DNA of 46,318 nt. It comes from a virus. The stretch covers positions 92,152 through 138,469 of IMG/VR virus record IMGVR_UViG_3300028534_000016; one strand, written 5' to 3'. Under the pieces are notes generated by a model. It was not told where the DNA came from and did not search any database. It saw only the letters and a list, made by a program, of their open reading frames with translations. Positions within the stretch are counted from its first letter, which is position 1; every line of letters begins with the position of its first letter. A program made the position numbers and the translations under genes. Positions 3,490 through 7,410 of this stretch are shown one piece after another.

Positions 3490-4362
3490 ATGGCTACAAT
3501 TGCTGATGCTATTTTAAACAAAGAAGAAGTCTATGCTGGTCATTCACCAGCCCTTAACTTACGTTATGGCGGACAAAACGGATACTTTGCTAAGATTGGT
3601 AGAGTTGGTCCTGATGGTAAAAACGTTGAAGAATGGATCTCTAACCAAGCTTACGTACAACGTAATATCATTCCTGTGGTATTAAGAGCACCTAAGTTTC
3701 TTAACTACATGCCTGAACCACAAAAATGGATTGATACATATAAAGCACTTATCGAGCTACACCCATTAACTATTACTGGTTTAACTTCTGGTCTTACAGT
3801 TGAGACTGATGAACACGCTATTGGTGGTGCTGGTGAGATGCAAGAAGAGATTACTGATGTAAAAAGAGCACGCTCTACAGTCAGTACTACATATAAAGAG
3901 AAAGCTGGTAAAGCTATTATCAAATTCCTAGATTATCTTATTAGATATGGTATGATGGATCCTGATACTAAGAAACCTTTAGTAGCTAACTTTATGGAAA
4001 ACATCGAAGATATTGGTGGTATGTATACTGCTGACTTCTATACTGGTACAGTATTGTTTATCGAACCAGACGTTACACAGAAAATTGTTGTTGATGCTTG
4101 GTTAACTACTAACTTCTTCCCTAAATCAAATGGTGAAAGAACTGGTAAACGTGATATTCATAGTGCCGGTGAAGCTCCTGAACTAAGTATCGAATGGGCT
4201 GGTATCACTATGAATAATGAAGCTGTTATGAATATGGCAGATACTATCCTACAGAACTTAACTGTTATTAACACTCTTCCGGATGTCGGCATGGTGACAC
4301 CTCAGTCAGAAATTGACCCAAATGTTGCAGCCAGTGAAAATGTTGGCTATAATGAACATTAA
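3490..4362 (+). CDS. Tail tube protein (phiKZ gp30-like)
   Basis: 290 aa after the sheath. Motifs YGGQNG, WISNQAYVQRN, GGAGEMQE, MMDPDTK, LFIEPD, NFFPKS.G. Confidence 0.88.
   Translation: MATIADAILNKEEVYAGHSPALNLRYGGQNGYFAKIGRVGPDGKNVEEWISNQAYVQRNIIPVVLRAPKFLNYMPEPQKWIDTYKALIELHPLTITGLTSGLTVETDEHAIGGAGEMQEEITDVKRARSTVSTTYKEKAGKAIIKFLDYLIRYGMMDPDTKKPLVANFMENIEDIGGMYTADFYTGTVLFIEPDVTQKIVVDAWLTTNFFPKSNGERTGKRDIHSAGEAPELSIEWAGITMNNEAVMNMADTILQNLTVINTLPDVGMVTPQSEIDPNVAASENVGYNEH
4288..4334 (+). repeat. 47-bp direct repeat, copy 1 (inside the 3' end of the tail tube gene)
   Basis: GGCATGGTGACACCTCAGTCAGAAATTGACCCAAATGTTGCAGCCAG, identical to 6015-6061. Confidence 0.97.
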
Positions 4363-4400: not shown

Positions 4401-5980
4401 TATATAAATTTTTTATAATTATGTATTGTAGTATTACCTGGTAAATTAAGATCTCTACACATATCAAGAAAAGTTTTATAATATGTCCCCTTAACATTAA
4501 ATTTATAAAAACGTTTAATTTGTTTTTCAAGATATTCTTCTAGTATATTGTATTTAATGTATGGTATGCGTATTAAATGTATATTATTAAATGTAGCTAA
4601 TGTATTTTTTTCTTTATCTCTTTTTCTTGTTTTTTTAAATTCGTCCTTACCGCCAAAAAATGATCTTGGTTTGAAATGTTGGATACCGTCATACTCTATA
4701 AGTATATTGAGTTCTGGTAAATAGAAATCATATCTATAGTTATAACCAGGTATTTTATATTCACGAATATGCGATATGTTGTGTTTTTTTAGATATTTTA
4801 ATATTTTTTCTTCTCCTTTAGAAATACTACATTGCGAACAACCATTTCCAGTTAGATGGCTAGTAGCTGTTTGTTCAAAGTCGCCATGTTTAGGACAAGT
4901 TATAACTACTATATTTTTACTCAATGTATACATTGTTTTATTGTAGTCGTATTTATTTCCGTGTATTTTTCTGGCTTTCTCTATAAACTGATCCGTAGAT
5001 AAGGTATTTTTAATTATAGCGCATTTTAAACAGTTTCCGCGAATATGACTATTTGGTGTTTGTTTGAATTCTCCGTGTATCGGACAAATGATAGTAACTG
5101 GTATTTTGCTATTAATATAATTAACTTTACTATAATCGTACATACTGCCATGTACTTTTTTAGAGGCAGTAATAAATTTTTTCATATTTATATATCGTTC
5201 GTTATCTCTATAACATCGCATACAGCCGATGTTTGATAAATGTATTCTTGGTAATTGTTCGAAGTCGCCATGTACCGGACAGGTTATACGTATTGGAGTA
5301 TTGCTTCCCATATATTTTACATTGTCATACTTATATTTATTACCGTGTACATTTTTAGCTTTCTCTATAAATTGTTCAGTAGTGAATGTTCTTTTCATAA
5401 CACTACATTTATAACAACCACTACTTGTTAAATGTTCACTTGGTATTTGTTCAAAATCACCATGAACTGGACATGTTATAGTTATTTTTGTTCGCATATT
5501 TATGTATTTAGTTTTACTATAACTATATTTATCTCCGTGAGCTTTTCTAGATTTCTGTACGAATTCTTCTTTCGTAGTTCTTTTCGTATCGGCGACCGAT
5601 ATTCTTCCGCATATAATACATCCGCGACCACTTAAATGATCGTTAGGTGTTTGTTCAAAAACTCCGTGCTTTTTACAAATTATCTTTAATGGTATTCTAC
5701 TAAGCACGTATTCGGATAAAGAATAATCATATTTATCGCCGTGTATTTGTTCGGCTTTCTTTATGAATTGATTTGTAGTCACTCGGTCATTATTAATTCT
5801 GCATTCATTACACGCACTCCCTGCTAAATGTCTATTGACTCGTTTTTTATATTCGCCGTGCATCGGGCATATTATTGTTATATCCTTATTCTTATATACT
5901 CTGTCTGTTGATGGTTGTATGTATTTATATTTATTATTATACATCTTATTAGCAATATTTAAAAAATCTTTAAAATTCAA
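4400..5980 (-). CDS. Free-standing putative homing endonuclease: six zinc-binding repeats (DUF723-like) plus C-terminal Vsr/DUF559-like nuclease
   Basis: TTG start with AAGGA. Six CxxHG...H...CxxC units (CPMHG, CKKHG, CPVHG, CPVHG, CPIHG, CPKHG). C-terminal SKGE...YRYDFYLP..NILIEYDG.QHF...RDKEKN...LIRI. Confidence 0.82.
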   Translation of the reverse strand: MNFKDFLNIANKMYNNKYKYIQPSTDRVYKNKDITIICPMHGEYKKRVNRHLAGSACNECRINNDRVTTNQFIKKAEQIHGDKYDYSLSEYVLSRIPLKIICKKHGVFEQTPNDHLSGRGCIICGRISVADTKRTTKEEFVQKSRKAHGDKYSYSKTKYINMRTKITITCPVHGDFEQIPSEHLTSSGCYKCSVMKRTFTTEQFIEKAKNVHGNKYKYDNVKYMGSNTPIRITCPVHGDFEQLPRIHLSNIGCMRCYRDNERYINMKKFITASKKVHGSMYDYSKVNYINSKIPVTIICPIHGEFKQTPNSHIRGNCLKCAIIKNTLSTDQFIEKARKIHGNKYDYNKTMYTLSKNIVVITCPKHGDFEQTATSHLTGNGCSQCSISKGEEKILKYLKKHNISHIREYKIPGYNYRYDFYLPELNILIEYDGIQHFKPRSFFGGKDEFKKTRKRDKEKNTLATFNNIHLIRIPYIKYNILEEYLEKQIKRFYKFNVKGTYYKTFLDMCRDLNLPGNTTIHNYKKFI

Positions 5981-6014: not shown

Positions 6015-6089
6015 GGCATGGTGACACCTCAGTCAGAAATTGACCCAAATGTTGCAGCCAGCAATTCAGGGTATAACGAACAAGCTTAA
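6015..6089 (+). pseudogene. Second copy of the tail tube 3' end (47-bp repeat copy 2 plus variant C-terminus)
   Basis: Reads GMVTPQSEIDPNVAASNSGYNEQA*, versus GMVTPQSEIDPNVAASENVGYNEH* in the intact gene. Confidence 0.85.
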
Positions 6090-6110
6090 GTAAAAAAAAA
6101 ATAGATAATA

Positions 6111-6144
6111 TATACTACCTAGTCTTATAAGACTAGGTAGTATA
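6111..6144. terminator. Perfect 34-bp palindrome, probable terminator
   Basis: TATACTACCTAGTCTTA/TAAGACTAGGTAGTATA, with an A-run on the left that reads as a U-tract on the minus strand. Confidence 0.75.
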
Positions 6145-6219
6145 GTTACTATTATTTTAGGATATGGATATAGCAATAACACTCAGCTATTGTGTTAATA
6201 CTATGTTAGGTTAGGTATG

Positions 6220-6325
6220 TGCTCTAGGTTGGAGTTGAACCAACTAAATACCTCGTTACAATCATAATGTATTCTACAGTGATACACTATGAATTCACTC
6301 AGTCTATCCGATTTTCATCTAGAGC
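6220..6325 (-). ncRNA. Atypical tRNA-like RNA (class II-like, 12-nt anticodon loop, no encoded CCA)
   Basis: Minus strand: acceptor GCTCTAG/CTAGAGC+A, T-arm GTTGG-TTCAACT-CCAAC, D-loop-like AATCGGATAGAC, stem AGTGA/TCACT, variable arm AATAC/GTATT. Confidence 0.6.
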
Positions 6326-6332
6326 ATAGATT

Positions 6333-6435
6333 GTAGTCAGGACATTGGTTAGCGCACCTATCCTGTGCTGTCCTGACTACTAAATATATAACCTAGATAT
6401 TGGTTAGCGCACCTATCCTGTGCTGTCTAGGTTAT
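6333..6435. ncRNA. Two tandem hairpins with an identical 24-nt loop and different 12-bp stems
   Basis: GTAGTCAGGACA-[TTGGTTAGCGCACCTATCCTGTGC]-TGTCCTGACTAC (6333-6380) and ATAACCTAGATA-[same loop]-TGTCTAGGTTAT (6388-6435). Confidence 0.65.
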
Positions 6436-6439
6436 GATA

Positions 6440-6745
6440 ATAATTCGGTTTTCGAATACCAGACATACTACAGCGAGATCTACAAGCAAGAATATGCACG
6501 GTATCAATATAGTGTATTCAGATTGACTCGCTACGCCAACCCCGCTTACCCATAAAATCAAGGGCAGCTGCTCATAGTCGCCTATGAGATTTGTTCACTC
6601 GATTCGCTTGAATCTACTAAAGGAACACGACAAAACTTATATGTATAAGGTCGTAAACGGGACTAGGATATCTCCAACAATACAACGCATCCCGTGACGC
6701 AGTATTTTACAGACATATCCTGAAGCGCATGCAGCACTAAAAGTT
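6440..6745 (-). ncRNA. Putative ~300-nt structured non-coding RNA of unknown family
   Basis: No ORF, higher GC than the flanks. Minus-strand helices: CTCATAG-GCGA-CTATGAG, GCGTC-ACGG-GATGC, AGGATAT/ATATCCT, ACGAC/GTCGT, GATTC/GAATC, TAGCGAG/CTCGCTG. Confidence 0.5.
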
Positions 6746-6763
6746 AAATTAACTTACCTACGC

Positions 6764-7186
6764 CTACGAAAGTAGTGTAGCAGTCATCTCTTTAGTAAGG
6801 TCTTGAATCTTAGACTTACTAACTTTAGTAAGCGGATCTTTAACTGTTACACCAAGAGTAGACTTAGTTACTTCAGTGCCATCAGCAGGCGATTTAAATG
6901 TTTGTGAGCGTTTAGCAACAACATTCACTTGTCCGCGTTTAGATACACCATATGGGTATTCTACAACTACTTTATCGATGTCTTTATCTTCAGACATGAT
7001 TTTAGTAGATTGTTCTGCAGCAGCTTTAGTAGCTTCTTCAATATAAGAATGTGCATGGTCGAACACTTCTTTAATTACTTTCTTAGAAAGTTCTGTACCT
7101 TCGTAGAATGCATTTTCATCGTTATACTTTACAGTAGCGATTCCTTCTGTTTTACTTACTTCAAATTTTCCAGCATCGATTGCCAT
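6764..7186 (-). CDS. Hypothetical protein (140 aa), probably early-expressed
   Basis: ATG with AAGGA RBS, uninterrupted ORF, downstream of an early-promoter-like motif. Confidence 0.8.
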   Translation of the reverse strand: MAIDAGKFEVSKTEGIATVKYNDENAFYEGTELSKKVIKEVFDHAHSYIEEATKAAAEQSTKIMSEDKDIDKVVVEYPYGVSKRGQVNVVAKRSQTFKSPADGTEVTKSTLGVTVKDPLTKVSKSKIQDLTKEMTATLLS

Positions 7187-7398: not shown

Positions 7399-7410
7399 AA
7401 TAATATATGT
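7399..7410 (-). promoter_or_regulatory. Candidate early promoter ACATATATTATT
   Basis: Identical 12-mer at 42937-42948. Resembles the phiKZ early motif TATATTAC. Confidence 0.45.

Follow-up and report, generated by a model that had tools for sequence, protein, structure and literature searches.

Twin RNA hairpins with compensating stem changes beside a tRNA-Leu-like element in an uncultured phiKZ-like jumbo phage

Two neighboring hairpins, HP1 and HP2, in the genome of an uncultured phiKZ-like jumbo phage from the deep sea are, as judged from their sequences, old duplicates of one whole hairpin, the stems of which drifted apart via compensatory changes. This conclusion was drawn because pairing is retained in five outer stem pairs of which both partners differ between the two hairpins. 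The hairpins are part of a variable RNA island which occupies a fixed genome position and which contains, in sense orientation, a tRNA-Leu-like element. The stretch of DNA analyzed here (46,318 nt, in the following called the window) corresponds to the last 46 kb of an IMG/VR contig of 138 kb, which is about 53% complete. The contig encodes phiKZ-type tail sheath and tube genes and has a GC content of 30%. Near-identical DNA was found in epibiont and hydrothermal-vent metagenomes.

The twin hairpins in the window and in a related phage

The hairpin region contains the following elements:

6333-6380, minus strand: HP1, with a 12-bp stem, an inner 4-bp helix, a 7-nt apical loop, and a 9-nt one-sided bulge
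6388-6435, minus strand: HP2, with an architecture like that of HP1 and an outer stem of other sequence; 6398/6425 forms a G-U pair only when read on the plus strand
6341-6372: core repeat copy 1, 32 nt
6396-6427: core repeat copy 2, 32 nt, with one mismatch to copy 1

The sequence-only reading had described a 24-mer occurring twice, each time closed by a 12-bp stem, with an inner GCAC/GTGC helix in the loop. Repeat, stems and inner helix were all borne out, with the repeat in fact extending over 32 nt and a single mismatch between the copies (C6343 versus T6398). The 24-mer is present exactly twice in the window, at 6345-6368 and 6400-6423. In shuffled sequences 0 copies were expected, even at up to 3 mismatches, and no third copy was found in the window with the same tolerance. 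The stem of HP1 is formed by 6333-6344 with 6369-6380 and is Watson-Crick throughout, and the stem of HP2 is formed by 6388-6399 with 6424-6435, its pair 6398/6425 reading G-U on the plus and A-C on the minus strand. In minus sense the parts of the hairpin are the 12-bp stem, a GCAC/GUGC inner helix, an AGGAUAG apical loop, and the 9-nt bulge at the 3' side.

Compared to shuffled sequences, the hairpin pair folded with a z-score of -4.4 on the plus and of -4.4 on the minus strand, and z-scores of -3.3 to -5.1 were obtained for the single hairpins (window copies, both strands). The MFE of HP1 was -22.8 kcal/mol on the minus and -22.9 kcal/mol on the plus strand (z about -5), that of HP2 -13.8 kcal/mol on the minus and -17.7 kcal/mol on the plus strand. 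Comparing the stems of HP1 and HP2, the inner 4 bp were found in common and 3 of the 8 outer positions were equal, and their earlier description as unrelated had to be abandoned. For the remaining 5 of the 8 outer pairs both sides were changed with the pairing retained. Overall, 93.8% of the cells were paired, versus 23-44% when the partners were slid by 1-3 columns. These data support the view that the stems have been maintained by compensating mutations and that the structure is under selection. The proposal that the hairpins are selected structures is strengthened accordingly by five pairs doubly changed between the copies and one more between phages.

The sequence-only reading had tied its proposal to the existence of further copies with preserved stems. 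One such locus was found, L121 on a JGI metagenome contig. It is the only other locus with the hairpins, and its 140-aa protein is 94% identical to the protein encoded next to the hairpins in the window. The DNA identities between window and L121 were:

140-aa gene: 89% identity
Multi-helix domain: 89% identity
HP2: 81% identity
HP1: 96% identity
tRNA-like element: 100% identity (107 of 107)

HP1 of L121 shows one core change (inside the 24-mer) and one stem change. The stem of L121 HP2 was kept; in it, one A-U pair is replaced by G-C as a compensatory change, two wobble pairs are new, and a single mismatch is present whichever strand is read. In the core of this hairpin 4 substitutions and a 1-nt deletion occurred (5 of 24 positions), by which the GGA was lost from the apical loop, the inner helix was extended to 5 bp, and the bulge was changed. 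Because of this altered core, the loop can be called invariant within the window genome only, while across phages the term fails with the five changes of L121 HP2. A block of 13 nt is constant in 4 of the 4 copies; it takes in the loop's 3' half together with the 3' strand of the inner helix and the first part of the bulge. Both a weaker constraint on HP2 and a homogenization of the window cores by gene conversion fit these data. As the motif was found in just two genomes, the statistical basis is thin, and either explanation may apply.

In scans of IMG/VR, JGI metagenome contigs and GTDB genomes, the motif was confined to these two closely related uncultured phages, and it was absent from 9 other relatives. 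The search for the 24-mer in the rest of the genome and in viral metagenomes, as suggested by the sequence-only reading, yielded no exact match in IMG/VR. Using a pattern with a free inner stem, at least 117 chance matches were obtained from IMG/VR, none in a hairpin context, and a 17-nt degenerate core had no match there. A 19-nt degenerate core matched the JGI metagenome contigs once, within a coding region. For an 18-mer of the core one single-copy chance match and no array was found in 185,579 GTDB species genomes. No new copy was detected by a fuzzy search of the 138-kb contig (up to 6 substitutions), nor by the covariance model R1, which was built and run on the 138-kb contig and 13 related loci. 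Short words shared between the core and the islands of the relatives, including a 10-mer in L124 and a loop-plus-bulge match in the tRNA-like element of L128, were not above chance, as 31% of the shuffles had as many and 4% had as long ones. The listed sequencing runs carrying window-like sequence included no RNA run. Near-identical pieces were present at low depth in four DNA runs, none spanning the hairpins, and one contig stops within the HP1 core.

The variable RNA island and its neighborhood

Around the hairpins the following elements were located:

6111-6144: palindromic bidirectional terminator identified by a terminator scan, end of the island (minus) and of the original tail-tube gene (plus)
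6159-6170, minus strand: two UAUCC motifs next to each other within an unpaired linker, with complementarity to the loops of the hairpins
6221-6325, minus strand: tRNA-Leu-like element with acceptor stem (7 bp), T stem (5 bp) and canonical T loop, but lacking a usable anticodon arm
6440-6763, minus strand: multi-helix non-coding sequence of ~320 nt between 140-aa gene and HP2
6764-7186, minus strand: conserved 140-aa gene with 27 homologue clusters, the island being located in its predicted 3' tail

The hairpins are located within a 674-nt stretch without conserved ORF (6090-6763), which reaches from the 140-aa gene to the original end of the tail-tube gene at ~6089. Two small ORFs over the hairpins contain stops or a frameshift in L121, and the hairpin region thus appears to be non-coding. 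The island core (6145-6763) has a GC content of 39% versus 30% for the genome and is strongly structured, with a fold z-score of -6.5 on the minus strand. Compared to L121, the multi-helix domain at 6440-6763 shows 3 compensatory pairs and many minus-sense G-U pairs. It had no Rfam family match and was seen in the window and L121 only.

The gene order was constant in the readable relatives, with the 140-aa gene followed by the gap, the terminator and the convergent tube gene. In 11 relatives, the gap between 140-aa gene and terminator ranged from 51 to 677 nt with strongly different contents, which were read from the loci L121, L124, L127-L132, and L134. A hairpin with T-run equivalent to the terminator at 6111-6144 was found in every relative read. 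The terminator stretch 6091-6144 shares 84% identity over 54 nt with an unannotated spot of the unrelated Halocynthia phage JM-2012, and this was the only match of a blastn comparison of the island with 50,697 phage records. L124 (about 4640-4720), L129, L130, and L131 contain a long hairpin with covarying stems and 1-2 UAUCC motifs in the loop, followed by a conserved AACCUCCUU stretch similar to the anti-Shine-Dalgarno terminus of 16S rRNA at its 3' side.

The tRNA-Leu-like element starts 7 nt after the end of HP1 (minus sense). Including the window, 7 islands contain tRNA-like elements, all of them in the sense of the 140-aa gene. Across phages they comprise 79-105 nt, with acceptor stems of 7 bp which covary, T arms with a 5-bp stem and canonical loop, and a D region of leucine type, the start of which is formed by a conserved GAUGAAAA, whereas a usable anticodon arm is missing throughout (window; L124, L128-L131). 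Between window and L121 the element is identical in 107 of 107 positions, versus about 89% for its flanks. The elements were missed by both ARAGORN and Rfam in the window and in the islands of the relatives. L124 and L128-L131 likewise have a stable hairpin close to the 5' side of their tRNA-like element, in L128 again with a 12-bp stem.

Homologues of the 140-aa protein form 27 clusters with 48-94% identity, and no family was found in Pfam or PHROG. The protein has 24 invariant residues, among them a PYG-SKRG block. Its structural model was confident (pLDDT 85) and gave no clear fold match, with weak Foldseek hits to HU/IHF (E about 0.1-0.5) and VIA-align Z values of at most 5.4. At 7399-7410, 5' of the 140-aa gene, the 12-nt motif ACATATATTATT was observed, with 4 exact copies in the contig, all on the minus strand, and with 15 minus-strand versus 3 plus-strand occurrences at one mismatch. 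It is a candidate for a phage promoter element. A scan for sigma-70 promoters remained at chance level, sigma-70 being irrelevant to a phiKZ-type phage. On the other side, an HNH endonuclease cassette is located 3' of the tube gene, with exact 47-bp direct repeats at 4288-4334 and 6015-6061. The cassette brings a duplicate of the tail-tube gene's 3' end, and the endonuclease contains six internal repeats of about 190-200 nt. As the cassette is absent from the closest relative L121, the uninterrupted arrangement found there provides an empty-site comparison.

Strand, proposed mode of action and competing explanations

The hairpins alone gave no strand signal. The paired cells amounted to 60 of 64 on the minus and 62 of 64 on the plus strand, with a summed MFE of -71.6 (minus) versus -72.9 kcal/mol (plus). 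The sequence-only reading had left the strand uncertain on the grounds of one G-U pair. Its plus-only G-U pair does exist in the window, but as an argument it is cancelled by minus-only G-U pairs in L121. Taking the surroundings into account, the minus strand is probably the functional sense, because the orientation of tRNA-like element and 140-aa gene, fold energy, substitution tolerance and flanking G-U pairs all favor it. Folded in minus sense, the island was more stable by 24 kcal/mol than in plus sense, of 23 single-sided substitutions the minus fold kept 12 and the plus fold 7, and the helices flanking the hairpins contain many minus-sense G-U pairs.

Tentatively, and a little short of calling it probable, we regard the hairpins as modules of a minus-sense non-coding RNA which forms the 3' tail of the 140-aa gene, where they would function as a cap and in loop docking. 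The transcript would contain, in this order, the 140-aa gene, the ~320-nt multi-helix domain, HP2, HP1, the tRNA-Leu-like element, and the bidirectional terminator. For RNase P, the minimal substrate is an acceptor stem of 7 bp with a T stem of 5 bp stacked to it. The enzyme would cleave 7 nt past HP1, where the tRNA-like element begins, and the upstream RNA would then end in HP2-HP1, very stable hairpins which may shield it from 3' exonucleases. The exposed loops would serve as docking sites, with the UAUCC pair just beyond the tRNA-like element as best candidate partner. Island transcription, RNase P cutting, 3'-end protection, and loop docking are the four steps that we infer.

A 3' cap would account for the stems and not for the shared core, because a plain cap needs no conserved core. 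The identity of the core within the window genome could also come from gene conversion, and HP2 is conserved to 81% versus an island average of ~89%. The loop sequence AGGAUA is complementary to the side-by-side UAUCC(U) motifs at 6159-6170. In L121, a change of G to U in the HP2 loop coincides with a change of C to A in the first UAUCC motif at the same pairing position. RNA docking by the loop is the only specific lead for the core, and a lead rather than a result, because this single covariation was noticed after the fact and its estimated chance is 0.03-0.06, i.e., roughly 3-6%. A two-part trans target (UUGGUU then UAUCC) was found at chance level in the contig. The small pseudoknot suggested earlier between the loop and CUAACC did not hold up, as it competes with the inner helix and its CUAACC partner is gone in L121 HP2.

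Several other explanations were weighed against the cap and docking function. The hairpins might represent a decoy or operator for a dimeric RNA-binding protein, putatively the host CsrA or a phage protein, which would be titrated early in infection. The GGA that the sequence-only reading saw exposed on the minus strand is indeed found in the 7-nt apical loop of both window copies, 55 nt apart, one motif on different stems is the design of a multi-site decoy RNA, and 13 contiguous nt do not vary among the four copies. Moreover, Campylobacter jejuni lacks CsrB-type RNAs, and two GGA hairpins of its flaA leader titrate CsrA (PMC4894983). However, the GGA is present in the apical loop of 3 of the 4 copies (minus strand) and L121 HP2 lost it with the stem kept, only two sites are available compared to many in known sponges, and the loop CAGGAU misfits ANGGA, (C/A)A(A/T)GGA, and the CANGGANG hexaloop (PMC4894983), carrying within its 7 nt a C two bases 5' of the GGA where the consensus expects an A. 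The CsrA sponge proposed from the sequence alone is weakened by this departure from the extended consensus (PMC4894983) and by the GGA loss in L121 HP2. We consider a protein decoy in general as rather unlikely, and its special form, a decoy acting early in infection on the CsrA of vent Campylobacterota-type hosts without CsrB-type sponges of their own, as distinctly improbable. A similarly low rank as for the general decoy, i.e., doubtful, was given to a relic duplication with generic stems and little sequence-specific function, in which recent gene conversion would have made the cores identical. Consistent with a relic are the identity of HP2 between the two phages (81% versus about 89% for the surrounding island), the HP2 core changing as fast as the HP2 stem, and the lack of the motif in 9 other relatives and in the public collections scanned. 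Compensatory changes maintaining the stems, the 96% conservation of HP1, and L121 cores which are still much more alike than the outer stems argue against it.

Less likely still, the hairpins may be peripheral arms of one large ornate RNA of ~560-620 nt, composed of multi-helix domain, hairpins and tRNA-like element, with the identical loops making tertiary or intermolecular kissing contacts. The whole island is free of ORFs, raised in GC, and highly structured. In addition, a long-range helix is predicted between the island start and the stretch after the tRNA-like element (columns 16-23 with 564-571), and the loop complement is located in an unpaired linker with one covariation. On the other hand, the long-range helix shows no covariation, no Rfam family matched, GOLLD and ROOL included, substitutions were similarly frequent in paired (34 of 438) and unpaired positions (23 of 241), and the island is modular, with quite different neighbors of the tRNA-like elements in the relatives. 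An equally small probability was assigned to the plus strand as the functional form, either as antisense RNA or as single-stranded DNA, e.g., a DNA hairpin recognized by a protein. On this strand two non-Watson-Crick pairs of the window turn into G-U, the inner helix can reach 5-6 bp stacked on the outer stem, and the MFE of HP2 is slightly better (-17.7 versus -13.8 kcal/mol). It is opposed by the two minus-only G-U pairs of L121, by every neighboring element reading on the minus strand, and by the lack of a plus-strand gene or a repeated promoter-like motif upstream. A non-palindromic hairpin center disfavors cruciform extrusion, and the center found here comprises 24 non-palindromic nt. Finally, it is most improbable that a CRISPR-repeat mimic or mini-array with two 32-nt repeats and a 23-nt spacer is present. 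The repeat length would fit and the core is partly palindromic with complementary ends, but the "spacer" is made up of two outer stem arms of 8 nt each, both of them paired with the flanks outside, its 23 nt are too short for the expected 30-40 nt or so, and the 18-mer of the core gave one chance match in 185,579 species genomes with no array.

Known RNA classes were compared as well. With the Rfam 15 covariance models, riboswitches, ribozymes, Y RNA, GOLLD, ROOL, tRNA and tmRNA among them, no match at gathering score was obtained for the window, the eukaryotic small-RNA models SNORA79 (E 6.6) and mir-344 (E 3.6) over the hairpins being both far under their gathering scores, and the islands of the relatives gave none at E up to 1. 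The aptamer considered by the sequence-only reading found no counterpart, since no known aptamer was resembled and Rfam gave no match, and nothing resembling an antitoxin repeat array was seen in support of its antitoxin-like repeat. ToxI-type type III antitoxin repeats were rejected, as there are only two units with differing flanks and no ORF between hairpins and terminator. The neighbor genes of the hairpins are the 140-aa gene and the HNH cassette. The hairpins are also no tRNAs, as a T arm is missing and every register of the inner loop is without U33 or a purine at 37, and ARAGORN detected no tRNA anywhere on the contig, the window included. Intrinsic terminators were dismissed because neither hairpin appeared in the terminator scan and neither strand shows a T-run behind them. 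Regarding Y RNA and Ro60, no TROVE match was found in the 138-kb contig (about 53% complete) and no Rfam match.

Related RNAs and meaning of the hairpin site

We would group the hairpins with phage hairpin RNAs which are derived from 3' UTRs or linked to tRNAs. To our knowledge, phiKZ-type jumbo phages make small 3'-UTR RNAs, none of which has a known function. Phage phiKZ produces an abundant ~100-nt RNA with two stem-loops by processing of the PHIKZ298 3' UTR, its function being unknown (Gerovac et al., 2021, PMC8545117). Likewise, the window hairpins belong to a phiKZ-type jumbo phage, span ~100 nt with two stem-loops, and follow a protein gene. In position, size and predicted shape they agree with such a 3'-UTR RNA. 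The PHIKZ298 RNA has no start site of its own. Its second stem-loop is a terminator, whereas the window hairpins have no U-tract and differ further by their common core, the tRNA-like element next to them, and the lack of sequence similarity. With the CsrB/RsmZ sponges and the flaA leader, the hairpins have in common the GGA motif in neighboring apical loops, the different stems, and a spacing compatible with a dimer (PMC4894983). Unlike CsrA-titrating RNAs, the window and L121 hairpins deviate from the extended consensus, offer two sites only, and include one L121 copy without GGA.

The long, ORF-free, highly structured phage region beside a tRNA-type element recalls GOLLD and ROOL; unlike these, the window island is modular, found in two phages only, and without Rfam match. 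Formation of 3' ends directed by tRNA-like elements is found for MALAT1/mascRNA, the tRNA-miRNA units of the herpesvirus MHV68, and the stable RNAs of the T4 tRNA cluster. In these cases, as predicted for the window, a tRNA-shaped element adjoins stable hairpins in one transcript, and therefore tRNA-processing enzymes can define RNA ends. Different from the window, the hairpins of these systems are not known to have a core in common, and for the window the processing is only predicted. For MHV68 the hairpins are located 3' of the tRNA-like part, whereas the window hairpins are located 5'.

The general importance of the hairpins is limited because the motif is restricted to two phages, and the more general feature is the variable RNA island, together with the conserved tRNA-Leu-like element in it. 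The hairpins illustrate cleanly how an RNA hairpin, once duplicated, is kept via compensatory evolution beside a strictly conserved tRNA-like element, and at their genome position different RNA modules are exchanged among related phages. If the hairpins only cap an end generated by RNase P, they would constitute a bacterial-virus counterpart of the tRNA-like-directed formation of 3' ends. If docking or the capture of a host protein turned out to be true, they would offer a first handle on the role of phage RNA islands.
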